Part shown: in pieces, positions 24,313 to 50,940 of the stretch
Layout: every line of letters begins with the position of its first letter
Position numbering within the stretch: position 1 is the stretch's first letter
Assembly (NCBI GenBank): GCA_964558675.1
Contig: CAZLEY010000005.1
Location: forward strand, 1,519-65,518
Direction of reading: 5' to 3'
DNA from: an uncultured Dehalococcoidaceae bacterium
GTDB taxonomy: Bacteria; Chloroflexota; Dehalococcoidia; Dehalococcoidales; RBG-16-60-22
Length of the DNA stretch: 64,000 nucleotides
Position numbers and translations under genes: made by a program
Notes under the pieces: model-generated
Seen by the model: the letters and a program-made list of their open reading frames with translations, nothing else
What the model was told of the DNA's origin: nothing
Databases searched by the model: none

Positions 24313-24362
24313 AGATAGAACCAGTCTACGAAAAATTTGAGAGTGGAAGAAGGTGGCAACTA

Positions 24363-33628: not shown

Positions 33629-35875
33629 TTATGCAGCCTTCTTCTTGCGTATTTTGCCCTCTTGCCCGAAGGGAACCATGCCAATATCGCCTTCATACCC
33701 CTGCAACCTGTATGCCCCTCTCGGCAGGTCTTTCATGTCTTCCTTCTCCACCTTGTATATCTTGCACAGCAAGCAGGTGAGGTCGGGCGCGCCGTACATC
33801 GGGTCGAAGTGCTCATTGGAAGTAAGAACATCGGGACTGGATATGGTCAGTCCGTGGAGCGGAGCGGGTTCCTCGGGGTAGAAGCAGTTGCCTGTCGCCA
33901 TAACCACGCGGGGGTCAATGCCGGGGAACACCCGGGCTACCTGTCTGATGCGGCCCCTTGGTGATTCAATCCACATCCAGTCGCCATCCTTTATCCCATG
34001 CTTTTCGGCTGTATCGGGGTTGATTTGGGCAATCGGGTAAACCCCGAAGCTTCTCAGCCACGGTATGTTCCGGTATTGACTGAGGAAGTAGAACGGCTGA
34101 CGGTACCCACTGGTAAGGACGTAGGGGTATTCTTCGGCCAGTTCTGGTGTGGAAGAGGGACTTTCGCCTGGCTCGACGAAGTACGGCAGCGGGTCGTAAC
34201 CCAGACCTTGAAGGACTGTTGAATATAGCTCCAGCTTTCCGGTAGGGGTGGGGAAACCACCCCCCTGCCTCCAGTAGTCCGTCTTGTATTTATAGTAGAC
34301 CTGCTCCCTGCCTGTCCTGGCCACAACCGCCTTCTCGCTGAATTCCTTCCAGGTTATTTTCCCTTGCCTCAGTTGATAATCCAGCATCTCTTCCACGGTG
34401 TTCCAGGGCCAGTATTCAGGAGCCACCCGTTTACCTATCTCCAGAGCCACCTTGTTATCCGGCCAGGCCTCGCCCGGAGGCTCGACGCACTTGTTGATGG
34501 CTTCAATCATAAAGCGAGGGTGCATGTCAAAAATATCATCCATTTCCAGCCAGTGAGCTGCCGGCAGCACTATATCGGCGTGTTCTGCCTGCGGCCCCAT
34601 AAAATGGTCAAGCTGGACGAGGAAGAGGTCTTCCTTTTCGAAGGCTTTTATCACGTACCCTGTATTCGCCAGGTGGACTATCTGCTGCCCGGCTATGGCA
34701 ATCCACACCCTTATTCTATCGGGATGGTCTTCCACTATTTCCTTAATTACGGTATCGGAGTGGGAGGTGCGGGCAGCGCCCATTTTATATGTATCGCCAC
34801 CTCTTATTCTGTTCTTCATTTCGTCCGTTATGGGAATTTCAAAGATGAAGTCTTCCATCAGACCGGTATCCGGCAGTACCCAGCTCATCATGCTGCCCGG
34901 TCTTTCGATGTTGCCGGTTATCCCCAGTAAGTCAACTACGGCTCTCATGGTCTGGCCGCAGTTGGCCTGTCTTTCTATGGAACTGCCGACCTGAATAGTC
35001 CCCGGGGTATCTATGGCAAACAGGCGGGCGGCGTTTATGATTTTTTCCTCGGGAATCCAGGTAATTTCGGCCACTTTTTGTGGAGGGTACTCCTGTGCCC
35101 TTTCCTTTAGTTCGTCGAAACCGTATGTCCAGTTCTCGACAAACTCCTTGTCGTATATCCCCTCGTTGATGATGACATTCATCATGCCGAGGAGCAGGGC
35201 AGCGTCGGTGCCGGGTCTGATTTGCAGCCACTCCGTTGCCCTTGAGGTCATGGCGGTTGCCCTGGGGTCGATAACAATCAGATTCTTCACATGGTCCAGT
35301 GATTTCATGAAATAATACGCCATTTCACCGTCGGCACTGCTTATTTCCAGTTGCTTGGCCAGGACTATTTGCGTCTTGGGGTATTCCCCTCCCCAGCCGT
35401 GGTAGTCACAGTAAAGCCGGCCGTAGCCCGTTACCAGTCCGTATATACCCAGCCTCGGGCTGTGGCAGATATAGCCCGGGGTTATCGTGTTGCCGGAACC
35501 TATGGACCGGGCCAGACGGTGAATATAGCGGTTACAGCCCCGGCCGGTTCCCTGGGATACCGCTATGGTATGCGGACCGTATTTCTCCCTGGCTTCGTTT
35601 ATCTTTTGGGCAATGGTATCCAGCGCCTCGTCCCAGCTTATCCTCTGCCATTTCCCTTCACCTCTTTTACCAGTCCTTTTCAGGGGATATTTAAGCCGGT
35701 ACGGGTTGTTAATGTGCTGTAAGGACGATAGTCCCTTGGCGCACATCGTACCGCTGGTCGGGGTCTCCGGATTTCCTTCTACGTGAATAATAACGCCGTC
35801 CTCAACCGTAACCAGGACGCCGCAGCCGCCGTGGCAGCCTTTGCAGGTGGTCTTGACTATCTTCTTTTCACCCAT
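33629..35875 (-). CDS. bis-PGD molybdo/tungsto-enzyme catalytic subunit (PsrA/acetylene-hydratase-like clade), no Tat signal
   Basis: 748 aa. N-terminus MGEKKIVKTTCKGCHGGCGV...MCAKG. MMNVIINEGIYDKEFVENW block. C-terminal LLCKIYKV. GAGGAG ribosome-binding site. Confidence 0.9.
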   Translation of the reverse strand: MGEKKIVKTTCKGCHGGCGVLVTVEDGVIIHVEGNPETPTSGTMCAKGLSSLQHINNPYRLKYPLKRTGKRGEGKWQRISWDEALDTIAQKINEAREKYGPHTIAVSQGTGRGCNRYIHRLARSIGSGNTITPGYICHSPRLGIYGLVTGYGRLYCDYHGWGGEYPKTQIVLAKQLEISSADGEMAYYFMKSLDHVKNLIVIDPRATAMTSRATEWLQIRPGTDAALLLGMMNVIINEGIYDKEFVENWTYGFDELKERAQEYPPQKVAEITWIPEEKIINAARLFAIDTPGTIQVGSSIERQANCGQTMRAVVDLLGITGNIERPGSMMSWVLPDTGLMEDFIFEIPITDEMKNRIRGGDTYKMGAARTSHSDTVIKEIVEDHPDRIRVWIAIAGQQIVHLANTGYVIKAFEKEDLFLVQLDHFMGPQAEHADIVLPAAHWLEMDDIFDMHPRFMIEAINKCVEPPGEAWPDNKVALEIGKRVAPEYWPWNTVEEMLDYQLRQGKITWKEFSEKAVVARTGREQVYYKYKTDYWRQGGGFPTPTGKLELYSTVLQGLGYDPLPYFVEPGESPSSTPELAEEYPYVLTSGYRQPFYFLSQYRNIPWLRSFGVYPIAQINPDTAEKHGIKDGDWMWIESPRGRIRQVARVFPGIDPRVVMATGNCFYPEEPAPLHGLTISSPDVLTSNEHFDPMYGAPDLTCLLCKIYKVEKEDMKDLPRGAYRLQGYEGDIGMVPFGQEGKIRKKKAA

Positions 35876-35895
35876 TTAATAGCTCCTCAAAATCC

Positions 35896-36834
35896 TTAAT
35901 GGTAAGCAGATGTGGTCACCGGCAGTATCGGATTATGTATGCCGGCTTTCAGCAGGACATACTTGAGAGCGACCGCACCAAGTGTATGCAATACAACAGC
36001 GGTGATTAATAACGGAACCGAGGCTTCGCCGGCGAAGTAACTGGAAACTGATATGGCTAATGGTATGATGATGCCAAGGATAATGACGCCTACCCAGAAA
36101 GGTATGGCCAGTCTCCCTCTCACCAGGAGCATTGCCGAGTATTTAGCCGTCTTTGAGGTGTAAGTGGCATTCCAGAGATATACAATTATCAGTATGATGT
36201 TAGCAATCAACACAATACGGCTGCCGGTCTCGACGGCTGCGATATTTACAGAGGTATCCACCAGGCCGACGGCCAGCATCAGGGCAAACCCGTCAGCGAC
36301 GCCGGCGAGGAGCAGAATCAGGGGTAGCATGGCCGTATTCCAGAAGGGAATACTCCGGCAGTAGCTCATGATAAAACCGCTGTATATGCCCACGAGGAAG
36401 GCAGCTATGCCGCCCAGTACCCTGAACACGATATCCCAGGCGTCCCAGGCGGTACCGGGGAAGACATTTATAGCCAGGTAGGTAACAACAAGCTGTATAA
36501 AAACAATGCTGCCAAATAAAATGGTAAAAGTAATGCCCCGGGTAAACCAGGAAGTCTTCCAGGCATCGGTAAAGGGCGGTATTGTTCGCCAGAAACGGAG
36601 CGGCTTGCCGAAGTAAATAAGGTGCGGCGGCAATTTCAAGAACATGATGATAAGCCAGGCAACCAGCATGCCCCACCAGTTACTGTAAAATAACGAAATC
36701 AGGTAGAGGCCGGCACCAAGCGACGTAAATACCTCGGCAACCCAGACCAGTATACCCTTACGCTCTATCCATTCAGTCTGCGGGGTGGGTTTCACCATCC
36801 ACTCGTGGTTTACCATCCACTGACGTAATGCCAT
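35896..36834 (-). CDS. NrfD/PsrC-type integral membrane anchor subunit
   Basis: 312 aa with about 8 predicted TM helices. It lies between the FeS and catalytic subunit genes. Confidence 0.75.
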   Translation of the reverse strand: MALRQWMVNHEWMVKPTPQTEWIERKGILVWVAEVFTSLGAGLYLISLFYSNWWGMLVAWLIIMFLKLPPHLIYFGKPLRFWRTIPPFTDAWKTSWFTRGITFTILFGSIVFIQLVVTYLAINVFPGTAWDAWDIVFRVLGGIAAFLVGIYSGFIMSYCRSIPFWNTAMLPLILLLAGVADGFALMLAVGLVDTSVNIAAVETGSRIVLIANIILIIVYLWNATYTSKTAKYSAMLLVRGRLAIPFWVGVIILGIIIPLAISVSSYFAGEASVPLLITAVVLHTLGAVALKYVLLKAGIHNPILPVTTSAYH

Positions 36835-36836
36835 CT

Positions 36837-37496
36837 TCAGGCTCCTCTCCGTCCTTTATCGATGTAATATACTGAAGGGTCGGTATCATATTCGGGATGA
36901 AGCTGGAATCCTCTACTATTGCGTATAAGCTGCCTTACTTCGCTTTCAGGGTCGTCCAGGTCACCGAAGGTAAGTGCCCTGGCCGGGCAGGTATTGACGC
37001 AGGCAGGCGTGGCTTCACGGTCTACTCCCGGTTTTAGTCCCTTCGCCAGCCCGGCATCAATCCTTTCCATGCAGAAATTGCACTTCTCCGTCGTACCGAC
37101 AGTGTGGGGGTATAACCGCTTGCCGGCTTTTTCAAACTCAGTCAGTTCGTAGCCGGGGAAATATCCCGTATCCTTGTCCTTTGAGAGGAAAATCCTGTTC
37201 TGGTAAGGACAGGCGATTATGCAATATCGGCAGCCAACGCACTTGTCTTGGTCAACCCAGACTATCCCATCTTCTCGCTGTTGCGTGGCATTGGTAGGGC
37301 AGACCTTGACGCAGGGCGCATCCTTACAGTGGTTGCACCGCACCGGGTACGTCGTCATTTCTTCGGCTGTCTCTTCCCAGGCAATCAACCTTGACCAGGT
37401 TATGCCGAGAGGAAGGAAGTGCTCGACCCTGCAGGCGGCTACGCAGCCATGACACCTCATGCACTTGCTTAAGTCTATGACCATTCCCCATCTCAT
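36837..37496 (-). CDS. 4x[4Fe-4S] electron-transfer subunit (PsrB/DmsB/NrfC type)
   Basis: Four Cys clusters: CMRCHGCVAAC, CNHCKDAPCVKVCP, CVGCRYCIIACP and CNFC...CVNTCP. Confidence 0.9.
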   Translation of the reverse strand: MRWGMVIDLSKCMRCHGCVAACRVEHFLPLGITWSRLIAWEETAEEMTTYPVRCNHCKDAPCVKVCPTNATQQREDGIVWVDQDKCVGCRYCIIACPYQNRIFLSKDKDTGYFPGYELTEFEKAGKRLYPHTVGTTEKCNFCMERIDAGLAKGLKPGVDREATPACVNTCPARALTFGDLDDPESEVRQLIRNSRGFQLHPEYDTDPSVYYIDKGRRGA

Positions 37497-37620
37497 GTAC
37501 GTTTGTGTCCTTCCTTGACAATATGGTATATATTATGCATATGAACAATTAATTGAAAAGCAGAGCATCGATTTATATTTGTATGCGTAGTGAAATCCAT
37601 GAAATATGCGATAATAATTA

Positions 37621-37659
37621 ATGTGTAACTTATGTAACATAGTAACATCAGTTACACAT
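37621..37659. promoter_or_regulatory. inverted repeat ATGTGTAAC-N21-GTTACACAT with internal GTAAC(A) repeats in the divergent control region
   Basis: Perfect 9-bp arms. It lies between the molybdoenzyme operon start (37496) and the crp/fnr start (37828). Confidence 0.35.
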
Positions 37660-37749
37660 ATTGTCAATACCTTTTTTTAAAAAGTTTGGTATAATTACTT
37701 GGTATTAGGACGTTTTTTTAACTATCATGTATCGAATTTCAGCTTCGGT

Positions 37750-37790
37750 TTGACAAAACCGCTTAAGTTACTTACATTATGTCTTAAGCG
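37750..37790 (+). promoter_or_regulatory. putative crp/fnr promoter TTGACA-17-TACATT overlapped by inverted repeat CGCTTAAG-N15-CTTAAGCG
   Basis: TTGACA at 37750-37755. Inverted-repeat arms at 37760-37767 and 37783-37790, followed by GTTATGTGAAT, which recurs at 48256-48266. Confidence 0.4.
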
Positions 37791-37827
37791 TTATGTGAAT
37801 ATTTGCCCTTTATTAAGCTGATGTAAC

Positions 37828-38493
37828 ATGGCGGTTAATCTAAAAATACTGGCTAAAATGCAATACTTTGCTGGCCTTACTCCGGATGAGCTTGAGGAGG
37901 TCAGTAAGTATATCGCCTTTGAGAAAAGAATCGAGAAAGGGCAGACTCTACTGCTTGAAGGCGACCAGTCCGAATATATGTATTTGATAGCTTCCGGTGC
38001 GGTGAAAGTGTACAAAAGGTCAGCTAACAGAAAAGAACAGATTCTGAATATAGCTTCCACCGGGGAATCGCTTAACGATGTATCAACCTTTGATGGCGGC
38101 GCGTGCGCTATGGATATGCTAACGATGACTCCTGTACGTCTCTACGCCATAACCAAAAAAGATGTGAAGGCTCTCTTCACGGCATTTCCCAGGGTAGCTC
38201 TGAATGTGGCCGGAGTTCTGGCGGCTAAGGTCCGCCGTGATTCGTCTCTGGTGGAGGTACTATCATTTGACCAGGTTATCAGCCGTTTAGCTCGTCTGAT
38301 TCTTAAGCAATCCGATGCCGGACAGGGTCTGTTACCACATTTTACGCAGCAGGACCTGGCGGCCATGGTTGGTACCAGCCGGGTAGTGGTCAACAGGTCT
38401 CTGCGGGTTATGGAGGAGAAAGGGGCCATAAGGCTGGAGCGCCGCCGCATTGTTATTACCGATGAACAGGCTTTGAAGAATCTGGTAAGGTAA
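37828..38493 (+). CDS. Crp/Fnr-family transcriptional regulator
   Basis: N-terminal cNMP-binding-like beta-barrel and a C-terminal HTH (FTQQDLAAMVGTSRVVVNRSLRVMEEKGAI). No N-terminal FNR Cys cluster. Confidence 0.85.
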   Translation: MAVNLKILAKMQYFAGLTPDELEEVSKYIAFEKRIEKGQTLLLEGDQSEYMYLIASGAVKVYKRSANRKEQILNIASTGESLNDVSTFDGGACAMDMLTMTPVRLYAITKKDVKALFTAFPRVALNVAGVLAAKVRRDSSLVEVLSFDQVISRLARLILKQSDAGQGLLPHFTQQDLAAMVGTSRVVVNRSLRVMEEKGAIRLERRRIVITDEQALKNLVR

Positions 38494-38570
38494 TCTTCGC
38501 CGCCGTTCCCGGGTATATTTTATATTATATACATTTTATATACATTCTAAAAAAATAAGAGGAGGATTTC

Positions 38571-39200
38571 ATGGCTACATTGGAAGAATTGCAGGCGAGA
38601 ATACAAAGACTGGATGACATAAAGCAGATAGAGAGGTTACAGAGAATCTACGGCTACTATCGCGACTACGAGGAGTGGGAGAAGGTCGTCGACCTTTTCA
38701 GTGATAACGCCGAGTCAGTAGAGGAATGTGACTATGGCGTCTATAAGGGCAAGGAAGGCGTCAGGCGGTATTACATCGACCTTCTCAAGGGCGGCAAGGA
38801 CGCCAAACCCAGGACTGGCTACATGTCCATCGGTATGCAGATTCAGGGCGTGGTCACGGTTGATTCTGACGGCAAGACCGCTAAAGGCCGCTGGTACGGT
38901 TTCTTTGCGGAAGCCCGGCCTACGCTGACCTTGCATGAGGGGGAACTCAGGCAGTTGTGGGCTCACGGCATTTACGAGAACGAGTATGTCAAGGAGGATG
39001 GCAAGTGGATGTTTAAAAAACTCCATTTCTTCCTTAATTTCCGCACGCCGTACGAGGACGGCTGGCTCAAGACCCCGGTTGTCGGCCATAACGGCCCCAG
39101 CTTAGAAGTACCTCCGGATGCTCCGCCCACTACCTGGCGCCCCTATCCGTTCGGGTATCACTTCCCGGTTCATTTCAAGCATCCTATTACCGGACAATAA
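38571..39200 (+). CDS. NTF2/SnoaL_4-like protein, paralog 1
   Basis: LEELQARIQRLDDIKQIERLQRIYGYYRDYEEWEKVVDLFSDNAESVE. C-terminal tail PDAPPTTWRPYPFGYHFPVHFKHPITGQ. GAGGAGG ribosome-binding site. Confidence 0.7.
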   Translation: MATLEELQARIQRLDDIKQIERLQRIYGYYRDYEEWEKVVDLFSDNAESVEECDYGVYKGKEGVRRYYIDLLKGGKDAKPRTGYMSIGMQIQGVVTVDSDGKTAKGRWYGFFAEARPTLTLHEGELRQLWAHGIYENEYVKEDGKWMFKKLHFFLNFRTPYEDGWLKTPVVGHNGPSLEVPPDAPPTTWRPYPFGYHFPVHFKHPITGQ

Positions 39201-39217
39201 GAAAAAGGTGATATGTC

Positions 39218-39811
39218 ATGAATCTTGAAGAGCTGGAAAAGCGGGTAACTCTCCTTGAAGATATTCAGGAGATAGAAAACCTTCAGAAAATGTACGGTTA
39301 CTACTTCGATACCGGGATGTATCAGGAGGTAATCGACCTTTTCTCCGAGAATACGGAGTCGGTTGAAGTCACCGACCACGGGGTGTTCCGGGGGAAGGAG
39401 GGAGTCGTCAGGATGTATGCCGGTATGGTAGGTGTGAAGCGCCCCGGCTGGATGTTTTTTGAGGTCATGCAGTCGCAGGGCGTTATCTACGTAGCCCCGG
39501 ACGGAAAGGCCGCCACGGGACGCTGGTATACCCCGTCGTTCGAATGCCGGCCTTTCGGCGGTACGAAGAAGCAGACCTGGCAGTTCGGGGTCTATGACAA
39601 CGAATATATCAAGGAAAACGGGAAGTGGTATTTCAAGAAGCTGCACTGGAACATCACGTACTGGACCTCATTCGAGAGGGGGTTCCTCAAGGTCCCCAGG
39701 CTATCGGACACGCCGTTTCCCCACGCCGATGCCCCGGCGACGGCCTATCATCCCTATCCGTCAGGACATCACGTTCCCTATCCCTTTAAACACCCGGTTA
39801 CCGGCGAGTAA
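39218..39811 (+). CDS. NTF2/SnoaL_4-like protein, paralog 2
   Basis: MNLEELEKRVTLLEDIQEIENLQKMYGYYFD...FKHPVTGE. 17-nt gap from paralog 1. Confidence 0.7.
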   Translation: MNLEELEKRVTLLEDIQEIENLQKMYGYYFDTGMYQEVIDLFSENTESVEVTDHGVFRGKEGVVRMYAGMVGVKRPGWMFFEVMQSQGVIYVAPDGKAATGRWYTPSFECRPFGGTKKQTWQFGVYDNEYIKENGKWYFKKLHWNITYWTSFERGFLKVPRLSDTPFPHADAPATAYHPYPSGHHVPYPFKHPVTGE

Positions 39812-39830
39812 ATAAAAAAGGTGGTGAACT

Positions 39831-40439
39831 ATGAATCTTGAAGAACTGGAAAAGCAGGTACAGCTCCAGGAGGACATCCAGGAGATTGAGCACCTTCAGA
39901 GGACATATGGCTATTATTTCGATACCAACATGTGGGGCGAGATTGTCGATTTGTTCTCCGATAACACCGAGTCCGTGGAGATAGTCGATCACGGCGTCTT
40001 CTACGGCAAGAAGGGGGTAAAAAGGGTATATGCAGACATGATAGGAGGTAAAGATAGAGGTCCTTCCCCGGCCTGGATGCAGTTCATCGTCATGCAGATT
40101 GGCGCGGTTATTGACGTTTCGCCCGACGGCAAGTCCGCCCGGGGAAGATGGCAGACCTGGCTATGTGAATCCAAGCCGTACGGTGCTTTCGCCAGGCAGG
40201 AGTGGCTGCACGGTTATTACGAGAATAAGTATGTCAAAGAGGATGGCAGGTGGAAGTTCTCACTGCTGCACTGGAATAACACCTTCTGCTCTCCCATCGA
40301 AGACGGGTGGCTGAACTTACCGCTAATGGGCTGGATGCCTGTTCCCGATGCGGACGCGCCGCCGACAGCGTTCCACCCTTACCCCGACTTTATTAATAAT
40401 GTCCCTTATCACTACAAACACCCCATTACCGGTGAATAA
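39831..40439 (+). CDS. NTF2/SnoaL_4-like protein, paralog 3
   Basis: MNLEELEKQVQLQEDIQEIEHLQRTYGYYFD...YKHPITGE. 19-nt gap from paralog 2. Confidence 0.7.
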   Translation: MNLEELEKQVQLQEDIQEIEHLQRTYGYYFDTNMWGEIVDLFSDNTESVEIVDHGVFYGKKGVKRVYADMIGGKDRGPSPAWMQFIVMQIGAVIDVSPDGKSARGRWQTWLCESKPYGAFARQEWLHGYYENKYVKEDGRWKFSLLHWNNTFCSPIEDGWLNLPLMGWMPVPDADAPPTAFHPYPDFINNVPYHYKHPITGE

Positions 40440-40568
40440 ACCGATAACGGGATATTCTTGTTAAAGGTGGAGGGGACTTTTCGTCCCCCGGCTGTTCGGT
40501 ACGAAGAGGGAAATGTCCATCATTTCTCTAGCGACCTATTCAAGGACACAATAGAAAGGCTGATTATA

Positions 40569-43202
40569 ATGTCAGATGAGGAAGATAGATTGAAAGCTCG
40601 CAGTAAAACCGGGCACGTAGCGTCTCCGGTTTCGGAAGGGGCAGTCAAGACGTTTATTAAAGGGATGGCTCTCGGCGGTCACGGAGCTATGCCCGCCGCT
40701 ATTGACACTAAAAACGGCAAAATAGTCAGGATAAGGCCATTACATCTGGACTGGAAATACGACAAGAAAGAATTCAATCCCTGGAAGATTGAGGTGCGTG
40801 GCAATACCTTTAAACCGTCTATGAAAATCTTTCAGCCTCCCTTCAATCTTGCCTATAAAAAGCGCGTTTACTCTCCTAACAGGATTAAATACCCCCTGAA
40901 GAGGGTCGATTGGGATCCGAATGGGGAGAGAAACCCGCAGAATAGAGGTAAGAGCAAGTTCAAGAGAATTACCTGGGACGAGGCGACAGATATAATAGCC
41001 GGCGAGATAAAAAGAATAAAAGCGGAATACGGTTCGTATGCCATATTGGCACAGGGAGATGGACACGGAGAATCCAAAATCGTGCACGCCGCCCATGGCT
41101 GCCAGTACGAGTTTCTCAAGCTTCTGGGGGGCAGCACCTTTCAGCAGAGAAGCCCGGATAGCTGGGAGGGATGGTACTGGGGGGCCAAGCATGTCTGGGG
41201 AATGGACAAGACCGTGGGTTTGATGGACCCGCAGACCAATATAGTCAAGGATATGTCTGAAAATGCTGAAATGCTGCTGTTCTGGGGGTGTGACCCGGAA
41301 ACTACCCCCTACTTTTATCTGGCGGGATTACCGAGTCAGCTTTGCTATTTCTGGTCAAAAGCCGGTATAAAACAAATATACATATGTCCCGACCTGAACT
41401 ATGGAGCCGCCGTTCATGCCGATAAATGGATACCAGTACTGCCCAACACGGATACGGCTCTGCAACTCGCTATAGCCTATATCTGGATAACCGAAGGCAC
41501 TTACGACAAGGACTATGTGGCCAGGCATACCGTCGGTTTTGAACAATTCTCAGATTATGTTACGGGTAAGGAAGATGGCATCCCCAAGACACCGGAGTGG
41601 GCTTCGCCAAAATGCGGTGTGCCGGAATGGACGATTAAGGCGTTGGCCAGGGAATTCGCCGTGAAAACCACTTCTATAATACACTCCTTCGGCGGTTCCT
41701 ATATCCGCGGGCCATACTCAAGTGAGCCCGCCAGATTGGAAGTTATATTGCTGGGTATGCAGGGACTTGGGAAACCTGGAGTCCACCAGCAGAGCTGGTG
41801 GAAAGGGTTCCCCAGAGCCGTGGCAATGCCAACCGAGACTCCGGCCAGACAGGGTTCCTACTATGGATGGTTCTTCCCTCCTCCACCACAGGTTCTGCCG
41901 AAGACGCTTATTCAAAAGGCTATTCTCAGTGATGAGCCTATCAACTGGTACGGCAGCTCGGCACAGGTCTGCCCGACTGAAGACCAGTTTAAGAAATACA
42001 CCTATCCCATATCGGAAGAAGAGGGCGGCGCGGAAATACACATGGTCTGGAGTGATACTCCATGCCGTACGACTTGCTGGAATGGCGGCAACGATACTAT
42101 AGAGGCCTTCCAGAACCCTAAGCTCGAATGCATTGTCGTCCAGCACCAGTGGCTTGAGAACGATACTCTGCTAGCCGACATAATATTGCCGGTTAACACC
42201 AAATTAGAAGAACAGGATTTTGGCATAGACCGTGATTCACAGTTCTTCAGTATCTTCCTTGAAGGAAAAAGTATCGAGCCCGTTGGCGAGTCCAGGAGCG
42301 ACTACGAGATAGTATGCGAAGTAGCCAGAAAACTTGGCCTGTATGGAGAATTTACCAGAGGTAAGACGGTAGAGGAATGGATAAAATACGGCTATGAAAA
42401 CTCAAACATTCAGGGGCTGGTCAGCTGGGAGGAGCTTAAAGAAAAGCAGTATTACGTCGTCCCAACAGCACCGGATTGGGAAAAAGACCTGGCCGGCCTG
42501 GCAAATTTCTACAAGGACCCCGAAGCCAATCCCCTGGGAACGCCGTCAGGAAAGCTGGAGTTCTATTCAGAGAGAATAGCCCGGTACTTCCCGGATGACA
42601 GGGAGAGGCCGCCGGTACCGCACTGGATTGAAAAGAGCGTAATGCATGATGAAAGGCTTTCCAGCAAAAGGGCCAGGAGGTATCCCCTGCTGTTAATGTC
42701 CAATCACCCCAGGTGGAGATTGCATGCTCAGTGTGACGATATATCGTGGACAAGGGAAATTCCGACATGCAAGGTCATGGGGTTGGACGGCTACATGTAC
42801 GAGCCCCTGTGGCTTAATCCAGATGAGGCAGCCAGGCGAGGCATTAAGAATGGCGATATCGTTAAGGTCTTCAACGAGAGGGGCGCTGTCCTCGGTGGTG
42901 CCTGCGTAACCGAAAGGCTGATGCCCGGAGTTGCCTATATGGACCACGGGGCAAGGTGTGACTGGATAATACCCGGAGATCTAGACCGGGGTGGTGCCAT
43001 TAATCTGATATCTCCCGAAGGTACTACCTCTACAAACTGCGTCGGGCAGGCTACGAGCGGTTACTTGATTGAGGTGGAAAAGGTCAGTACAGAGCAGATG
43101 GAAGAATGGAAGCAGCGATATCCAGAAGCGTTCGAAAGAGAGTATGACCCGGCTTCCGGACTTCGATTTAATGCCTGGGTTCAGGGAACTACACAGATAT
43201 AA
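40569..43202 (+). CDS. FeS-less bis-PGD molybdoenzyme, pyrogallol-phloroglucinol transhydroxylase large-subunit-like
   Basis: No Cys in the first ~150 aa. The blocks NPWKIEVRGNTFKP, YPLKRVDWDPNGERNPQNRG, FKRITWDEATDIIAGEIKRIKAEYG, PDSWEGWYWGAKHVWG and FWGCDPETT resemble AthL as I recall it. The start is ambiguous (ATG at 40569 versus the track's TTG at 40458). Confidence 0.8.
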   Translation: MSDEEDRLKARSKTGHVASPVSEGAVKTFIKGMALGGHGAMPAAIDTKNGKIVRIRPLHLDWKYDKKEFNPWKIEVRGNTFKPSMKIFQPPFNLAYKKRVYSPNRIKYPLKRVDWDPNGERNPQNRGKSKFKRITWDEATDIIAGEIKRIKAEYGSYAILAQGDGHGESKIVHAAHGCQYEFLKLLGGSTFQQRSPDSWEGWYWGAKHVWGMDKTVGLMDPQTNIVKDMSENAEMLLFWGCDPETTPYFYLAGLPSQLCYFWSKAGIKQIYICPDLNYGAAVHADKWIPVLPNTDTALQLAIAYIWITEGTYDKDYVARHTVGFEQFSDYVTGKEDGIPKTPEWASPKCGVPEWTIKALAREFAVKTTSIIHSFGGSYIRGPYSSEPARLEVILLGMQGLGKPGVHQQSWWKGFPRAVAMPTETPARQGSYYGWFFPPPPQVLPKTLIQKAILSDEPINWYGSSAQVCPTEDQFKKYTYPISEEEGGAEIHMVWSDTPCRTTCWNGGNDTIEAFQNPKLECIVVQHQWLENDTLLADIILPVNTKLEEQDFGIDRDSQFFSIFLEGKSIEPVGESRSDYEIVCEVARKLGLYGEFTRGKTVEEWIKYGYENSNIQGLVSWEELKEKQYYVVPTAPDWEKDLAGLANFYKDPEANPLGTPSGKLEFYSERIARYFPDDRERPPVPHWIEKSVMHDERLSSKRARRYPLLLMSNHPRWRLHAQCDDISWTREIPTCKVMGLDGYMYEPLWLNPDEAARRGIKNGDIVKVFNERGAVLGGACVTERLMPGVAYMDHGARCDWIIPGDLDRGGAINLISPEGTTSTNCVGQATSGYLIEVEKVSTEQMEEWKQRYPEAFEREYDPASGLRFNAWVQGTTQI

Positions 43203-43267
43203 ACAGACTCTATAAACGGTGACAGTCTACAAATTTAAAATAGAAGTGATTTCGGTAGCATACAATA

Positions 43268-43288
43268 GGGGGGCTATATTAGCCCCCC
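43268..43288. terminator. bidirectional terminator between convergent genes
   Basis: GGGGGGCTA-tat-TAGCCCCCC followed by TTATTATTT. Confidence 0.6.
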
Positions 43289-43342
43289 TTATTATTTCGT
43301 CGAGTATTGATTAAAAACTAATGCCGGTTTAGTGCAACAGGC

Positions 43343-44650
43343 TTATCCTGGTTTCATCAGATTGGGCAGAAATAGCACGATATCAGGAAAAGCAATGAGA
43401 AGAATCAGGCAAATAATCATTGATGCCAGGAACGGGAATACGCCTCTGAAAATGGTAAATATGGGTACATCCTTTATCATTCCAGAAAGCGCATAGACCA
43501 CGATTCCCACCGGCGGGGTTATGCCTCCCATTAATATTGTCATGACGATGAGGACGGAAAGCCAGACGGGGTCATAACCCATATTAACAAGCACGGGGTG
43601 GAGGACCGGTGCTGTAATCAGGACGATAGGAATAATATCCACGACGAAACCGAGGATGATGTAGACTATCAGTGTGAGTACCAGAATAACGAAACGTGGA
43701 AGCTCAAGCGCGGCAATACCTTCCGACAGGTTTAGTGGTATCTCCGAAACTGTAACAAATCGCGTGAAAATCATGGCGCCGATGATAAGAAGAAACAGCT
43801 TACCCGTCAGAAGGGCCGTATCGCCAATACCGCCTGAAAAAGCCTGCCATGTCAGGCGCCTGAATATGAACCCGATTACGAGCGCTCCAAAGACACCGAT
43901 AGCGGCGGCTTCGGTCGGTGTGAACAGGCCGCCGTAGATGCCTCCCAGTACCAGTACAATCAGCAGGAAACTGCCCAGGATATAGCGAATTGACTTGAAC
44001 CTTTCGCCCCAGGTGGCTCGGGGAGAAGGCGTGGCCAGCGAAGGATCAATCTTACACCAACCTATAATCGAGACTATGAAAAGGACGGCGAGCAGTACTC
44101 CGGGGAATATGCCAGCTATAAAAAGTACGCCTATAGACTGTTCGGTTATTATGGCGTAGATAACAAATGCCAGACTGGGAGGTATCAGCAAGCCCAGATT
44201 GCCCGCTGAAGCGAGGATACCCGTCGATAGTACATCCTTGTATTTGTACTTACGCATTTCAGGGAGAGCTATCGTTCCTATGGCGGCGGCTGTGGCTACG
44301 GCATCACCGCATATGGCCCCGAATATCGTGCAGGCCGCTGTAGCCGCCATGGCCAGGCCTCCCCTGACGTGCCCCAGCCATTTGTTCATAACGTAGAACA
44401 GGTCCGTACTTAACCCCAGGCGCATAGCGAGAAAGCCCATAGCGATGAAGAGTGGTATGACACCAAGATTGAAGTCCGAAGCCGTTCGAAAAGCCTGAAT
44501 ACTGAGCACTGAGAGTCCCGCATCCCAGCCCCGGATGACGCTGAATCCTATGAATCCAACGATGGCCATGACAATGCCAATGGGCATGTTTAGAAAGAGG
44601 AGTATAAAAAAAAGCCCCAGGCCTATGGCGCCTACCAGGCCGGCACTCAT
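43343..44650 (-). CDS. dctM: TRAP transporter large permease (DctM family)
   Basis: 435 aa and polytopic. 4-nt overlap with dctQ. Confidence 0.85.
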   Translation of the reverse strand: MSAGLVGAIGLGLFFILLFLNMPIGIVMAIVGFIGFSVIRGWDAGLSVLSIQAFRTASDFNLGVIPLFIAMGFLAMRLGLSTDLFYVMNKWLGHVRGGLAMAATAACTIFGAICGDAVATAAAIGTIALPEMRKYKYKDVLSTGILASAGNLGLLIPPSLAFVIYAIITEQSIGVLFIAGIFPGVLLAVLFIVSIIGWCKIDPSLATPSPRATWGERFKSIRYILGSFLLIVLVLGGIYGGLFTPTEAAAIGVFGALVIGFIFRRLTWQAFSGGIGDTALLTGKLFLLIIGAMIFTRFVTVSEIPLNLSEGIAALELPRFVILVLTLIVYIILGFVVDIIPIVLITAPVLHPVLVNMGYDPVWLSVLIVMTILMGGITPPVGIVVYALSGMIKDVPIFTIFRGVFPFLASMIICLILLIAFPDIVLFLPNLMKPG

Positions 44651-45150
44651 AGCTCCTCCTTGCCTCTTACGGCATCAATAAACCTGACAAAAAGCATAAG
44701 GCCTGCCCATATGGCACCGAAGGCCACAACGAAAATAAAAGGATAGATTGGGATGTCCAGTATTTGGGACTCGGCATGCATTCTCTGCTGCTGCAGTGCG
44801 TAGACTATGCTCTGCCAGCCAATAGCAAGCAATACCAGCGAACTGACAACGTCAAATGCACGCCTGAGGAAGTTTCTTACTCGTTCCGGGAAACGGGCTA
44901 CCAGCACGTCAACGCTTATGTGCCTTTCCCGGCCGGTGCTGTACAGAATTGAGCCCCAGACCACAAATACAAGTCCGAATCCCATGAGCTCGTAGCTGAA
45001 TCCCAGGGGGTTATTGAACGCACGGCGTAAGGTAACATCTACGACTACCATGAGCACGACAAGAATCATTACCAGTGCCATAGCAACAATAGCCCAGTTC
45101 CCTACCTTAAAAAGTAGCTTTTTAAGAAAACTGCCTGTTCTCAGCCACAT
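44647..45150 (-). CDS. dctQ: TRAP transporter small permease (DctQ family)
   Basis: 167 aa with 4 TM helices, between dctP and dctM. Confidence 0.8.
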   Translation of the reverse strand: MWLRTGSFLKKLLFKVGNWAIVAMALVMILVVLMVVVDVTLRRAFNNPLGFSYELMGFGLVFVVWGSILYSTGRERHISVDVLVARFPERVRNFLRRAFDVVSSLVLLAIGWQSIVYALQQQRMHAESQILDIPIYPFIFVVAFGAIWAGLMLFVRFIDAVRGKEEL

Positions 45151-45162
45151 CTAAAATTCTCT

Positions 45163-46251
45163 TTATTTGGCAAACTCTTTCGCCAGAGCGTAAGCTTCCT
45201 CCAGGATGTCCTTGGCAGGTATCCCCTTGTCTTCATTCTCCTCTATCCAGTCATCGCGGACGACGGTAGTAGCTTCCACCCACCGTTCCCTTTCATCGTC
45301 GGTAATGTAGTAAACCGGAGGATTACCCACTTCGGCATCGTGCCCTCCAATGATGCCAAGGAACTTCTGGTCCTCTTCATCAAACATGGCGCCACAGCGC
45401 TGTGAGAAAGCCAGTCCCGTTGTTTCGTCAAACACCTTCTTGATGTCCTCGGGTAGTTCGTTCCAGGCATCAAGGTTCATGTACATCGGCATTATATTGA
45501 CCCACATATTGATATTGCCGGTGCGGTACTTCGTTACCTCGAATTCATGGAAAATAAATGCCTTCTCCCAGTTGGTCGCCAGGCCATCTACTATACCTGT
45601 CTCAAGTGCCGTGTACATTTCTCCTGACGGTATGTAGGTGGCCGTTGCACCTAATGCTTCCAGAGTATCCAGCCCTATATCCTGGCCGGTTGCCAGCTTC
45701 AGACCTTTCAAGTCTTCCATACTCTTAACCTGCTTGCCATTGTTGCACAGGTTGTCCGGAGCAACGGGGATTAACCAGAGGGGTTTGACATCCTTCAGGT
45801 CGGTATCCATCATATATTTTTCCATCAATTTCCAGTGTACCCAGCCCCCCATTTCAGCAGAGGTATACAGGAACGGTAAAGCGCTGACATTATTACGCAG
45901 CATAACGCCCGCCTGTCCACCAGACAGGACAATATCAGCCTGACGGTTCACAACCATACTGTAATGGTCGTCTTGGGCACCCAATGAAGAGGCAGAATAA
46001 TGGGTTATTTCCACCCTGCCCCCGGTTTTTTCTCCTATCTCCGCAATCCATGGGTCTATCATGGCCGCAGCGGGTAAAGCCATTGGTGGTATCCAGGTAC
46101 TTAGTTTTAATTCATAAGTTTTCCCCGGTTCGGGTTCGGGTGCTGGAGTCGGCTGTGGCTCTGGTTCCGGCTCTGTTTCGGTGCAGGCGGCTAAAGCCAG
46201 ACTGCTGACCAGCACAATCATCAATACGACAAGGACCTTCTTCATTTTCAT
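45163..46251 (-). CDS. dctP: TRAP transporter substrate-binding lipoprotein (DctP family)
   Basis: Lipobox MKMKKVLVVLMIVLVSSLALAAC followed by a PE-rich linker. DctP-like body. Confidence 0.85.
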   Translation of the reverse strand: MKMKKVLVVLMIVLVSSLALAACTETEPEPEPQPTPAPEPEPGKTYELKLSTWIPPMALPAAAMIDPWIAEIGEKTGGRVEITHYSASSLGAQDDHYSMVVNRQADIVLSGGQAGVMLRNNVSALPFLYTSAEMGGWVHWKLMEKYMMDTDLKDVKPLWLIPVAPDNLCNNGKQVKSMEDLKGLKLATGQDIGLDTLEALGATATYIPSGEMYTALETGIVDGLATNWEKAFIFHEFEVTKYRTGNINMWVNIMPMYMNLDAWNELPEDIKKVFDETTGLAFSQRCGAMFDEEDQKFLGIIGGHDAEVGNPPVYYITDDERERWVEATTVVRDDWIEENEDKGIPAKDILEEAYALAKEFAK

Positions 46252-46535: not shown

Positions 46536-48086
46536 CTATACCTTCTCTGAGGCGGCGTTCAGTCCTGCCAGCCGACCGAAAGTCCAGGCCCGGCTGTGAC
46601 TGAGGCCCGGTATAGTGGTCGGATACTGACTTCCGAAGAAAGAGCCGGAGGCGTTCCCGGCCGCGTAAAGCCCCGGAATCACATTTCTCTCTGTATCCAG
46701 TACCTGTAGGCTCGTGTTAATTTTCAGGCCGCCCAGAATCACCAGATAGAGAGACGTCATTTTACAGGCATAAAACAGCGGCTTCTCAAGAGTCGTCAAC
46801 CGGTCGGGGTGCTTGCCAAAGTCCAGGTCTTTACCTTGCTGCGCCAGTTCGTTGTACCTGGCTACGGTCGCCTTGAATTTCTCGACGGGCACCTCCATCT
46901 TCTGCGCCAGCTCCTCAATAGTCGATGCTGTCAGTACATTCCCCTCTTCGATTGCATCGTCGAGCCACCTGTCATGCCACAGGTTGGTTGGCGGGCCCAT
47001 ATTTTTACAGCACTGGCTCCTCATTATCGGCACTTCCTGCTTCCACTTGTCGTCCCAGACTGACCAGGCAACATTGCCCGGCTGTTGCATGAGTTGGGAA
47101 CATTCATAACCCCAGGGCAGGTCTTCATTCATGAACCGTTCTCCGTTCAGGTTCACATAAAGCCATGGCTGACGGCCCAGGTCAAAAAGTGACTCCCCTC
47201 CCCAGGCCGTGTAATCGAAAAGCATCGCACAATGCGGCGGGTCATCTATAGCCGCGCCAATCCACATAGCCATCTTATGGCCGTCGCCGGTATTTGGTTC
47301 GGTATCATAGGGGCCAGCAATCTGTTGCCTGGTATAAGCCAATTTAGTCATATCAGGGTACAGGCTGCGAAGCTCACTCACGCCTTTCCAGCAATACTCC
47401 TTAACCATCTTGCGGTCACTCCCGTAATCCCCGGTACAGAGGACTACCGCCTTGCCGGCGTTGAACTGGATGTATTCACCCGCTTTGTTTTGCGCAATAA
47501 CACCGGTAACTCTGCCTTTTCCTTCTCTGATTAATCGCACCGCGGGAGTCTCGAAGCGAAAGTCTACCCCGTGCGCCCGGCTGTTATTCATCAGCATCTC
47601 GGCCAGACTCGCCTGCCAGCCATAGTTATTTGAATCGAAAACATGTATGACAGGGTAATTCGGGAAATACCATGGCTTGGTGGTCGTATCCAGGGCAACT
47701 TCTATATTGGCAGCTTCAGCCATATCCAGCAGCCAGTCCATAACACTATCACAATTATCCGCCCACACGTTAACCACTCTCTGGTTACCCCTGTAGGCAG
47801 CGGTCTCCATTATTGTGTATATGATTTGTCCCTTGTCGATTTCAATACCCGCCTTTTTCTGCATCCTGCTGGCGATGGCGGCATTATGAAGACCACGGAA
47901 GTTGTAGCCGGGTCCCTTTTCCAGCAGGATAGTTTTGGCACCTGCCTCTGCGGCCGAGAGGGCCGCGGTCAGTCCGGATATTCCGGCACCCAGTACAACG
48001 ACATCTGCGGTTATTGTCTCCCTGATGTCTTTATCAGGAACCGGTGGTGGCGGGACCTCAAAGCTCGCTTTTTCTTCAGGACTCAT
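46536..48086 (-). CDS. FAD-binding oxidoreductase of the fumarate-reductase / 3-ketosteroid-dehydrogenase (FAD_binding_2) family
   Basis: DVVVLGAGISGLTAALSAAEAGAKTILLEKG at the N-terminus. C-terminal IPGLYAAGNASGSFFG. Confidence 0.8.
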   Translation of the reverse strand: MSPEEKASFEVPPPPVPDKDIRETITADVVVLGAGISGLTAALSAAEAGAKTILLEKGPGYNFRGLHNAAIASRMQKKAGIEIDKGQIIYTIMETAAYRGNQRVVNVWADNCDSVMDWLLDMAEAANIEVALDTTTKPWYFPNYPVIHVFDSNNYGWQASLAEMLMNNSRAHGVDFRFETPAVRLIREGKGRVTGVIAQNKAGEYIQFNAGKAVVLCTGDYGSDRKMVKEYCWKGVSELRSLYPDMTKLAYTRQQIAGPYDTEPNTGDGHKMAMWIGAAIDDPPHCAMLFDYTAWGGESLFDLGRQPWLYVNLNGERFMNEDLPWGYECSQLMQQPGNVAWSVWDDKWKQEVPIMRSQCCKNMGPPTNLWHDRWLDDAIEEGNVLTASTIEELAQKMEVPVEKFKATVARYNELAQQGKDLDFGKHPDRLTTLEKPLFYACKMTSLYLVILGGLKINTSLQVLDTERNVIPGLYAAGNASGSFFGSQYPTTIPGLSHSRAWTFGRLAGLNAASEKV

Positions 48087-48419: not shown

Positions 48420-50075
48420 ATGCCCGGTAAGCGCAGGGAAGAATGGATAAAAAATATGCTGGAGCCGGCACTAAAGCGTTTTCCGGAGAGGCAGCCCGAA
48501 TTCAACCTCACCTCGGGTATTGAAATTCAGCCCCTTTATACAGGCGATGACCTTCAGGGAGTTGACCTGGAAGCATCGCCGGGGTATCCGGGAGATTATC
48601 CCTTCGGGCGTGGCATTCAGCCCACAATGTACCGGGGTCGACTCTGGACTATGCGGCAGTATTCCGGCTTTGCCTCAGCCGAGGAATCCAACCGCCGCTA
48701 CCGCTACCTTATGGAGCAAGGCCAGACCGGACTGAGCATTGCCTTTGACCTGCCCACCCAGATTGGTTACGACTCCGACCATCCTCTGGCGCGGGGTGAA
48801 GTGGGCAAGGTAGGCGTGCCTGTTGATACGCTCCATGATATGGAGGTTCTCTTCAGGGACATCCCGCTGGATAAAGTCAGCACTTCTATGACGATTAATG
48901 CCACCGCCCCGATACTGCTGGCTATGTATATTTCCCTTGCCCGGCGACAGGGAACAGACTTGTCTCGACTTGACGGCACTGTCCAGAATGACATCCTAAA
49001 GGAATACATCGCCCGCGGCACCTATATCTTCCCGCCCGGCCCGTCTTTAAGATTAACTACCGATATTTTTGAGTACTGCAGTCAAAATCTCCCCCGCTGG
49101 AATACCATCAGTATCAGCGGTTACCACATCCGTGAGGCCGGGTCGACGTCGGTGCAGGAAATCGCCTTTACCCTGGCCAATGGCATTGCCTATGTCCAGG
49201 CAGCTATAGAGCGGGGACTCAATGTTGACGATTTTGCCGGCCGTCTTTCTTTCTTCTTTGATGCTCATAATAACCTGCTGGAAGAAGTAGCCAAGTTCCG
49301 GGCAGCCAGAGTACTCTGGGCGAAAATTATGAAGGAGAGGTTTGGCGCCAGAGAGCCCCGTAGCTGTATGCTCCGCTTCCATACTCAGACGGCTGGATGC
49401 GCTCTCACGGCCCAGCAGCCCATCAATAATGTCGTCAGGGTGTCTATTCAGGCTCTGGCAGCTATACTCGGCGGCACGCAGTCGCTCCACACCAATTCCT
49501 ACGACGAGGCTTATGCCACCCCCGGCGAGGAAGCCGTAACCGCGGCGCTGCGCACACAGCAAATTCTCGCCTATGAGAGCGGCGTTGCCGATTCGGTCGA
49601 CCCGCTGGGCGGTTCGTGGATGGTGGAATCTCTGACGCGGGATATGGAGGAAGCGGCTGGTAAGTATATTGAGAAAATCGATTCCCAGGGCGGTGCTCTG
49701 GCAGCTATCGAGAGTGGTTTCCAGCAGCGTGAGATTCAGGAAAGCTCATACCGTTATCAGAAGGAAGTGGAGGCGGAAAGCAGGGTTATCGTGGGCGTGA
49801 ATAAATTTATTACACCTTATTCAAAGATAGAGGGACTCGTCCGGGTTAATCCTGGGGAGGCGAAAGAGCAGATAGCCGCACTGAATAGTGTTAAGCAGAA
49901 TCGCAACGCCGGTGATGTGGCTTCGGCACTGGAAAACCTGAAAAAGGTTGCCCGGGGTAATGAAAACACCATGCCTGCTTTTATTCGGTGCGTGGAAGCC
50001 TATGCCACAATGGGGGAAATCTGCGACACCCTTCGTGAAGTATTCGGTGTCCAGAGGGAGTTCCTTATTTTCTGA
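48420..50075 (+). CDS. methylmalonyl-CoA mutase, large (substrate-binding) subunit
   Basis: [44 protein letters not shown] and [12 protein letters not shown]. Confidence 0.9.
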
Positions 50076-50112
50076 AACCTCCGGGGAAAATGCGCAAGGA
50101 GTAATACAATCG

Positions 50113-50526
50113 ATGATTAAAAAGGTTCACCATATTGGTATTGCGGTAAAGAATCTCAAGGAGAGTATGGCTCTCTTCGAGCGTGTATTGGGAATAAAAC
50201 CAGCCGCTATCGAGGACGCTCCCTGCCAGAAGGTGAACGAGGCTATTTACAGGGTTGGCGAAGGTGTGGAGATTGACCTCCTCGAACCGACCGGACCCGA
50301 TAGCGCTGTTGCCAAGTTCCTGGAGAGGCGCGGTGAGGGTCTTCATCATATTTGTTTTGAGGTTGATGATGTTGATGCTGAATTAGAGGCGATGGAGAGG
50401 AAGGGGGTAGACCTGATTGACCGTAAGGGGAGAGATGGGGTGGCGGGTAAAATCGCTTTCATTCACCCCAAATCGGTAAACGGGGTACTTGTTGAGCTTG
50501 TCCAGCCCGGAAGCGAGGGAGAGTAA
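50113..50526 (+). CDS. methylmalonyl-CoA epimerase (VOC/glyoxalase family)
   Basis: Trimmed to MIKKVHHIGIAVKNL with AAGGAG upstream. GEGLHHICFEVDD. Confidence 0.85.
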   Translation: MIKKVHHIGIAVKNLKESMALFERVLGIKPAAIEDAPCQKVNEAIYRVGEGVEIDLLEPTGPDSAVAKFLERRGEGLHHICFEVDDVDAELEAMERKGVDLIDRKGRDGVAGKIAFIHPKSVNGVLVELVQPGSEGE

Positions 50527-50532
50527 TAGTCG

Positions 50533-50940
50533 ATGAGCCGGGAAATGATACGGGTGCTGGTGGCCAAGCCGGGTCTGGACGGACATGACCGCGGCGCTAA
50601 GGTAGTGGCCCGTGCCCTGCGCGATGCTGGCATGGAGGTAATCTATACCGGCATACGCCAGACCCCTGAGATGATTGTCGAGGCAGCCCTCCAGGAAGAT
50701 GTCGATGTTTTAGGGCTGAGCTGTCTCTCCGGAGCCCACATGGAGCTTTTCTCGGATGTTATGGAAAACCTTCGGCAGAAGGGCATGGATAATGTCCTGG
50801 TGCTGGCCGGCGGCATTATCCCCGAAGAAGATATCCCCGCCCTTGAAAAAATCGGCATTAAAGTTATCTTCGGTCCGGGCGTCCATACATCTGAAATTGT
50901 CGAGTCTATCAAGAAGCTGGCAGCGGATAGAAAGAAATAA
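50533..50940 (+). CDS. methylmalonyl-CoA mutase B12-binding small subunit
   Basis: [34 protein letters not shown] (DxHxxG cobalamin motif). Confidence 0.9.

Follow-up and report, generated by a model that had tools for sequence, protein, structure and literature searches.

The 64-kb stretch considered here, called the window in the following, belongs to a contig (CAZLEY010000005.1) of an uncultured Dehalococcoidaceae bacterium and encodes three tandem NTF2/SnoaL_4 paralogs, followed by a molybdoenzyme of the AthL family. The trio is an autonomous, multi-phylum, and uncharacterised variant of the LdpA-like NTF2 proteins, probably hetero-oligomeric, and its neighbour is an unremarkable orphan of the AthL family. 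We think it probable that the two are independent modules, which only in this lineage lie on one strand and may be transcribed together. The paralogs are named A, B, and C for the first, second, and third open reading frame (ORF) of the trio. Paralog A (positions 38571-39200, 209 amino acids (aa)) was assigned from the ORF table, Pfam, alignment, and tree, B (39218-39811, 197 aa) from Pfam, an AlphaFold2 (AF2) model, and alignment, and C (39831-40439, 202 aa), the sister of B, from Pfam, tree, and alignment. ORF table and translations confirm what the first-pass annotation had reported, namely three ORFs of 197-209 aa with gaps of 17 nucleotides (nt) between A and B and 19 nt between B and C. 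All three lie on the forward strand, with a ribosome-binding site of the GGAGG/GGTG type in front of every one of them. The molybdoenzyme gene (40569-43202, same strand) encodes 877 aa and was assigned by Pfam, NCBIfam, and its PDB match.

The first-pass annotation had proposed that the NTF2 proteins could be partners of the molybdoenzyme, and that this should be judged by whether the genes are conserved together. To survey the cassette, one genome per GTDB species was scanned, which gave 486 matching stretches; locus counts refer to the 79 best loci. At these loci ORFs were called and then searched with the window proteins, and the neighbours were clustered all against all. The only gene family shared by all 79 loci is NTF2 itself, while any other family occurs in at most about a fifth of them. 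The same-strand runs at the cassette loci mostly contain no genes besides those for NTF2 proteins, which often form a two- to three-gene operon in varied contexts, and the window is the only case in which a molybdoenzyme gene lies inside this run. AthL-like genes were found within 10 kb of the cassette in just three loci and never in the arrangement of the window: 6 kb upstream in L009, on the opposite strand and 6 kb away in L033, and convergent in L036. From the side of the molybdoenzyme, none of the 80 closest metagenome loci of its homologues (56-86% identity) contains an NTF2 homologue. The molybdoenzyme thus exists without the trio and the trio without the molybdoenzyme, and the two are not co-conserved in either direction. 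Judged from these neighbourhoods, their adjacency is peculiar to the lineage of the window and not a new enzyme partnership.

The same is seen at the locus of the nearest orthologue. In L168, a molybdoenzyme gene with an intact ORF and 92% aa identity stands directly behind the same Crp gene. By blastn, L168 matches the window at 37116-38495 (the end of the PsrB gene, then Crp) and at 40446-43206 (the leader and gene of the molybdoenzyme) with 88% nt identity. According to blastn and the junction alignments, it lacks exactly the 1.95-kb block from 38496 to 40445, which comprises the trio and its leader. At the junction, a 17-nt match to the 3' end of the NTF2 gene SnoC continues the homologous block; it is weakly significant by shuffles (about 2%) and not significant against the whole cassette. 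The match hints weakly at a deletion in L168 rather than an insertion in the window.

The hosts among the 79 loci include Dehalococcoidia, Desulfobacterota (Desulfatiglans, Desulfobacterales), Actinomycetota, and others, and an exhaustive profile search of public representatives returned 2977 clusters at E<=1e-3, of which 209 also pass a limit of E<=1e-30. In a distance tree of 179 cassette proteins two deep clades are resolved, A with 78 and B/C-like with 101 members. Gene A comes first in essentially every locus and is followed by genes of the B/C type, 28 loci having the order A-B-C and 37 loci A plus one B/C-type gene, while paralog C is confined to the three-gene version of the cassette, which is mostly found in Dehalococcoidales. 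Because of the two deep clades and the A-first order, the ancestral unit is, as far as tree and gene order can tell, a pair of A and one B-type gene, with the duplication into B and C having taken place later in Dehalococcoidales.

Additional SnoaL_4 genes adjoin the trio in a number of loci (L009 at 8677-9883, L012 at 9269-9925, L022 at 4594-5250, L030, L036-L039, L053, L063, L069, and L073). They are of two types, one of about 217 aa with a histidine at the LdpA catalytic column (motif ALHMTVNPV) and one of about 146 aa. In the syntenic L022, a His-bearing SnoaL gene of about 217 aa is located between Crp and A, where the window has just 77 nt, and the window encodes no His-bearing fourth SnoaL protein. 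DUF169 genes are found beside the cassette or within about 5 kb of it in L004, L010, L011, L021, L023, L024, L026-L028, L041, L007/L044, L077, L081, and L082, thus in three phyla (Chloroflexota, Desulfobacterota, Actinomycetota) and sometimes in the same gene run, and none is present in the window. A literature search on the function of DUF169 returned nothing relevant.

The three NTF2 proteins match Pfam SnoaL_4 (PF13577) with 78.3, 81.3, and 71.6 bits at a cut-off of 24 (E 1e-20 to 1e-23) and share 47-57% pairwise identity; NCBIfam contains no model that matches them. Among solved structures, the LdpA diarylpropane lyases (8ABT/8ABU/8ABV; HMMER profile E 2e-37) come nearest, with BaiE next. 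In the HMMER alignment, residues 3-194 are matched to residues 12-225 of LdpA including the tail. The AF2 model of B, with a predicted local distance difference test score (pLDDT) of 90, superposes on LdpA 8abt with a template modelling (TM) score of 0.82 over about 220 columns at 32% identity, again with the C-terminal arm included, and the Foldseek order is LdpA, BaiE, a putative scytalone dehydratase, LinA, and AGDC1. The conserved N-terminal helix and the tail P.ADAP.T..PYP..P..KHP.TG that had been noticed at first sight are both real by alignment. However, the tail is not unusual as had been thought: because it superposes together with the rest of the B model, it corresponds to the C-terminal arm that holds the LdpA-type trimer together.

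All subunits of the trio retain the tyrosine and the aspartate of helix 1 of the NTF2 lyases. Of the LdpA Motif I (NaLdpA His97/Asp40) the aspartate is kept but the histidine is missing, its column being occupied by glycine in A and by valine in both B and C. Across the 179 aligned cassette sequences this column is never histidine (Gly, Ala, or Met in clade A; Val or Ile in B, C, and the other clades), and no histidine is found anywhere on that strand. The triad of Motif II (Glu143/Tyr165/Gln170) is missing as well, with Q/W/W in B, L/W/C in C, and A/F/R in A, and the catalytic histidine of the bile-acid 7-alpha-dehydratase BaiE (SMHMGH), which sits on strand 3 and pairs with the helix-1 aspartate, aligns with the same His-less profile column. 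Since the catalytic histidine and Motif II are missing, the cassette family does not belong to LdpA or BaiE in the sense of membership. Other positions are invariant across phyla (Glu50, Arg102, Glu109, Asn128, Lys132, Glu133, and Asp171), and strand 1 carries a family-specific ESVE..D(H/Y)G segment. In the pocket, whose residues were assigned solely via alignment to LdpA, the Gln170 column is arginine in 78 of 78 A sequences, tryptophan in 39 of 39 B sequences, and cysteine in 38 of 41 C sequences. Paralog A in addition has a clade-specific PTLTLHEGEL insertion. On the level of the alignment, the invariant polar residues, the strand-1 segment, and the fixed subunit-specific pocket columns argue against decay. 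An AGDC1-like gallate decarboxylase acting upstream of a transhydroxylase was considered and rejected as a matter of membership, since AGDC1 resembles the fold only remotely (TM about 0.5, 13% identity) and the trio does not keep its His86 dyad. Literature searches on these NTF2 proteins in Dehalococcoidia or Desulfatiglans, and on heteromeric NTF2 dehydratases, brought up nothing relevant.

The idea of a heteromer, raised by the first-pass annotation, finds support among the NTF2 proteins themselves. Because the gene order is fixed, paralogous domains occur as fusions, and the structural family includes known trimers (LdpA, LinA, and AGDC1; PMC9942872, PMC7862292), A, B, and C probably form a hetero-oligomer with each other. 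Within the His-less family A and B are fused in frame in P0422, a protein of 413 aa encoded on an NCBI contig of 11.9 kb, and in the partial P0001. The wider family contains dozens of single-chain fusions with two domains (about 450 aa) or three domains (about 650-720 aa), many of them among the best profile matches. Most of those listed (P0241-P0389) have a signal-peptide-like N-terminus and some carry extra domains (e.g. proteins of 954 and 1019 aa). Often only one domain of a fused relative keeps the Asp-His dyad, so that these fusions look like pseudo-heterotrimers with degenerate sites. A domain order mirroring A-B-C was looked for in the fusions and rejected, most fused domains scoring closer to A, and the fusions have therefore arisen separately. 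The simplest and most likely form of the hetero-oligomer would be an A-B-C ring. A single-sequence AF2 prediction of the three-domain fusion P0241 was unusable for packing (pLDDT 36, predicted TM score 0.24).

The best start of the molybdoenzyme is the ATG at 40569, homologues of 856-886 aa aligning from residue 1-6 of this version. An alternative TTG start at 40458 would add 37 residues that have no counterpart in the homologues, and the true gap to the trio is therefore 129 nt and not 18 nt. The protein has the Pfam architecture AhtL-like_1st, Molybdopterin, and Molydop_binding, and its best PDB match is AthL, the large subunit of pyrogallol hydroxytransferase (4v4c_A, E 1.9e-129, 436 bits). 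The DMSO/TMAO reductases come well below it, with 278 bits and E 1e-81 for DMSO reductase (DorA). The resemblance to AthL that had been pointed out in the first pass is thereby borne out. A grouping with the BisC/TorA-type reductases, which would have spoken against the first-pass interpretation, was not found, the scores being far below the NCBIfam cut-offs (382.7 versus 1017.55 bits for bisC_fam, 305 versus 909 for TorA). As had been observed, cysteines are missing from the first 150 or so residues, the first one being residue 178; the protein has no FS0 cysteines and no Molybdop_Fe4S4 match. It does not contain a Tat (twin-arginine translocation) motif and is predicted to be cytoplasmic. 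In the HMMER alignment Asp174-Ser175 of AthL (motif PDSWEGW) and His144 are conserved column for column. In AthL, Ser175 is the molybdenum ligand, accompanied by Asp174 and His144, and Tyr152/Arg153 and Tyr404 are pyrogallol-binding residues; the predicted ligand of the enzyme in the window is thus the serine of the PDSWEGW motif. Tyr152/Arg153 align with two alanines, and the stretch around AthL 395-444 including Tyr404 does not align. The divergence at Tyr152/Arg153 suggests a substrate other than pyrogallol, and because the AthL-like family is very large and present in multiple copies in Chloroflexota, the substrate is probably not pyrogallol. The family comprises more than 6000 matches to the molybdoenzyme, with up to three or four genes per 15-kb locus. 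AthL-like proteins have been noted earlier in sediment Chloroflexi (PMC3971608) and are counted, like resorcinol hydroxylase, among the MopB enzymes with a serine ligand (PMC10100899).

A gene for a three-cluster beta subunit of the BthL type is not present within the 64 kb, which extends the earlier observation that no iron-sulfur (FeS) beta subunit gene is adjacent. The only FeS protein nearby (36837-37496, 1 kb upstream on the opposite strand) is a four-cluster protein of the ArrB/PsrB type that heads the divergent PsrB-NrfD-PsrA-like operon. Among the 65 of the 80 molybdoenzyme loci that have enough flank, a beta gene is adjacent in 53, with BthL 4v4c_B as its best solved match over the full length (E 9e-49), and is missing in 12 (about 18%). 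Loci inspected one by one agree with this, L001 and L002 having a beta gene and L003 and L169 neither a beta gene nor NTF2 genes. The orphan state is therefore not special to the window. L090, an 82%-identical relative, has retained an adjacent BthL-like gene.

Following the reading of two independent modules, the trio is a self-contained cassette whose products would assemble into one hetero-oligomeric protein. This would most likely be a ring-like heterotrimer from the structural class of LdpA, BaiE, and LinA, each subunit gripping the next one by its long and proline-rich C-terminal arm, as is the case in this class. Each subunit keeps the cone-shaped NTF2 pocket and the helix-1 Tyr/Asp, combined with its own conserved pocket residues. 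The activity could be that of a cofactor-free lyase, dehydratase, or isomerase with a different acid/base. In ketosteroid isomerase the general base is on strand 1, and by analogy the invariant Glu50 on strand 1 is a candidate base. The substrate might be a phenolic or cyclic enone acid imported by TRAP (tripartite ATP-independent periplasmic) or major facilitator superfamily (MFS) transporters. The second module would be an orphan AthL-family alpha subunit, a Ser-ligated and cytoplasmic bis-molybdopterin guanine dinucleotide enzyme that moves or adds a hydroxyl group on a phenolic ring. It would act independently of the NTF2 proteins, its relatives normally pairing with a BthL-type FeS subunit or standing alone. 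Several observations weigh against this picture. The trio and the molybdoenzyme gene lie on the same strand behind one Crp gene, 129 nt apart and with no clear terminator in the spacer, which would allow co-transcription or a shared pathway, and AthL-like genes recur near the cassette in the three loci named above. The molybdoenzyme could work alone, or together with a beta subunit whose gene lies elsewhere in the genome. Stacked homotrimers or an A3B3 assembly may be formed instead of the ABC ring, and with the canonical catalytic histidine missing from all three subunits these may perhaps not be enzymes at all.

As an alternative, the NTF2 oligomer and the AthL-like enzyme might be linked by a pathway without being physical partners. 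They would then act one after the other on the same phenolic compound, for example by lyase or dehydratase chemistry before the hydroxyl transfer, with a shared Crp regulator and uptake by the TRAP transporter. Besides the common strand and the short spacer, this would agree with the presence of Crp orthologues in front of the cassette in some genomes and in front of the molybdoenzyme gene in L168. In L009, AthL-like, Psr-like molybdoenzyme, FAD_binding_2, Crp, and NTF2 genes are found on one strand within 10 kb, and further AthL-like genes lie in the neighbourhood of the cassette in L033 and L036. The FAD_binding_2 protein that recurs next to the cassette is nearest to vinyl phenol reductase and to urocanate/fumarate reductases, and both LdpA and AthL use plant-derived phenolics (PMC9942872, PMC3971608). 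However, the other partner is missing from the available DNA in 75 of the 79 cassette loci and in all 80 molybdoenzyme loci, which does not fit a common pathway, multi-copy AthL-like genes are expected to come to lie near the cassette by chance, and L168 has kept its molybdoenzyme gene intact without the trio. We therefore regard a pathway link as possible but rather unlikely. A physical partnership, in which the NTF2 trio replaces the missing FeS beta subunit, is far less credible and in our view very improbable. It would explain the adjacency in the window together with the missing BthL gene, its sole support, but it is contradicted by the lack of co-conservation from either side, by the nearest orthologue in L168, by the twelve orphan alpha genes without NTF2 neighbours, by the BthL-like gene retained in L090, and by the occurrence of the cassette on its own in most loci.

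It is quite unlikely, but has to be considered, that the trio is a non-catalytic NTF2 assembly with a ligand-binding, chaperone-like, or scaffolding role, the histidine of the His-Asp dyad having been lost in every subunit. The residues found in the His column of the 179 sequences and the missing Glu-Tyr-Gln of Motif II would be expected in this case. In addition, the fused relatives that often keep the dyad in one domain only demonstrate that non-catalytic domains are tolerated, and related loci add separate His-bearing SnoaL genes. On the other hand, the polar residues invariant across phyla and the clade-specific yet fixed pocket residues speak against such a role, and the window does not encode a His-bearing fourth SnoaL protein that the trio could assist. 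Compared with the two independent modules, a much bolder proposal would be that the cassette is an obligate hetero-oligomeric, His-less branch of the LdpA-like proteins whose three differentiated pockets perform a new cofactor-free and O2-independent conversion of lignin- or polyphenol-derived compounds in widespread subsurface anaerobes (Dehalococcoidia, relatives of Desulfatiglans, and Actinomycetota). In the lineage of the window the cassette would supply, or be supplied by, an AthL-type orphan molybdoenzyme for hydroxyl transfer, with one Crp regulator for both. We consider this proposal speculative and, taken as a whole, unlikely to hold.

The attraction of the original claim was a molybdoenzyme with NTF2-type partner subunits; failing the comparison of loci, it is not worth pursuing on this evidence. 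What remains is an uncharacterised cassette with the fold and trimer arm of LdpA, a lyase of lignin dimers that deformylates erythro-DGPD, but split into two or three specialised subunits without the known catalytic histidine. Its hosts are anaerobes of peat, aquifers, and sediments, whose part in polyphenol turnover is debated, and if the cassette is an enzyme, it would represent a new oxygen-independent reaction type for polyphenol chemistry. The cassette is thus a reasonable target for structural and biochemical work, for which the fusion proteins offer a direct handle. The share of about 18% of AthL-family genes without an adjacent FeS subunit gene bears on the need for an FeS subunit in hydroxyl transfer.

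Concerning the regulator, a Crp/Fnr-family protein of 221 aa is encoded upstream of the trio (37828-38493, forward strand; Pfam cNMP_binding and HTH_Crp_2, synteny). The part that the first-pass annotation had suggested for it finds support, in that Crp/Fnr genes again precede the cassette in L009, L012, L022, L053, and L063; in L168 one is directly upstream of the molybdoenzyme gene. FNR-type boxes (TTGAT-N4-ATCAA with up to two mismatches) were found 32 times versus 29.6 expected, and none is located in the intergenic regions of Crp, the trio, and the molybdoenzyme gene. Between the PsrB-like gene and the divergent Crp gene there is a near-perfect palindrome (37621-37659) with 18-nt arms, ATGTGTAACTTATGTAAC and GTAACATCAGTTACACAT; its GTAACAT core is found once more where translation of Crp begins (37818-37829), and it is a candidate operator. 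The spacer before the molybdoenzyme gene contains a GGGGAC-TTTTC-GTCCCC stem-loop (40472-40488, forward strand) that has no U-tail and is kept in L168, and a terminator-like hairpin with a 10-bp stem follows the gene (43267-43289, forward strand).

Downstream of the hairpin lie the convergent genes of a TRAP transporter, DctM, DctQ, and DctP (43343-46251, reverse strand), and a gene for a soluble FAD_binding_2 flavoprotein similar to ene-reductases (46536-48086, reverse strand), homologues of which are located by the cassette in nine other loci. The flavoprotein of the window is closest to vinyl phenol reductase, fumarate reductases, and urocanate reductases. The recurrent neighbours of the cassette are TRAP or MFS transporters, short-chain dehydrogenases/reductases (SDRs), FAD_binding_2 proteins, FAD_binding_4/CCG proteins, zinc-dependent alcohol dehydrogenases, and DUF169 proteins, in varying context. 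They would suit a pathway that breaks down or reduces an organic acid whose core is phenolic or a cyclic enone, without identifying the substrate.

On the other side of Crp, the divergent operon for a PsrB-like FeS protein, NrfD, and a molybdoenzyme subunit of the Fe4S4 type occupies 33629-37496 (reverse strand). AthL-like genes adjoin such PsrB-NrfD-PsrA-like membrane-anchored molybdoenzyme complexes in L137, L148, L152, L157, and L168 as well. In the window the Psr-like operon continues from 33626 to 27919 with genes for a FixC-like flavoprotein, a UbiA-family prenyltransferase, two MSMEG_0568-family radical S-adenosylmethionine proteins, and a UbiE-like methyltransferase. At 22198-27369, a lactonase-like gene with a metallo-beta-lactamase fold is enclosed by another two genes for Fe4S4-type molybdopterin oxidoreductases (704 and 699 aa), and altogether four enzymes of the MopB family are encoded in the window. 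Other genes include those for a methylmalonyl-CoA mutase large subunit, an epimerase-like protein of the glyoxalase fold, and a B12-binding small subunit (48420-50940), two tandem family-III CoA-transferases (14088-16585), and the largest ORF of the window with 1666 aa (698-5698, reverse strand).

Compared with known systems, the molybdoenzyme resembles AthL/BthL, the pyrogallol-phloroglucinol transhydroxylase from Pelobacter acidigallici (4V4C), in its AhtL-like first domain, in the lack of FS0 cysteines, and in the conserved PDSWEGW motif and His144. It differs in that a BthL gene is not adjacent and in that Tyr152/Arg153 are replaced by Ala-Ala. The PhzA/PhzB proteins of phenazine biosynthesis are tandem NTF2-fold paralogs that form heteromers, as we suppose for the trio. 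However, they form a dimer, belong to another NTF2 subfamily, and have no C-terminal arm. BaiE, the putative scytalone dehydratase, LinA, and AGDC1 are of the same fold class, and their helix-1 Tyr and Asp are retained in the cassette. Like the bai operon, the neighbourhoods of the cassette include genes for SDRs, flavin oxidoreductases, and transporters. The similarity to these BaiE/LinA/AGDC1-type enzymes is weaker, though (E 1e-6 to 1e-9), the catalytic histidine is missing in the cassette, and the enzymes have neither the C-terminal arm nor the multi-gene organisation. The closest likeness is to LdpA, a homotrimer clasped via its C-terminal arm (PMC9942872, PMC7862292), with which the cassette shares the NTF2 cone fold, the long arm, and the motifs YGYYxD, YENxYVKEDGxW, and the ..VP..F.HPV tail. 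In contrast to the single LdpA gene, the cassette consists of two or three differentiated genes, its proteins have the extra ESVE..D(H/Y)G segment, and its hosts are anaerobes, whereas LdpA is found in aerobic sphingomonads (Novosphingobium/Sphingobium).

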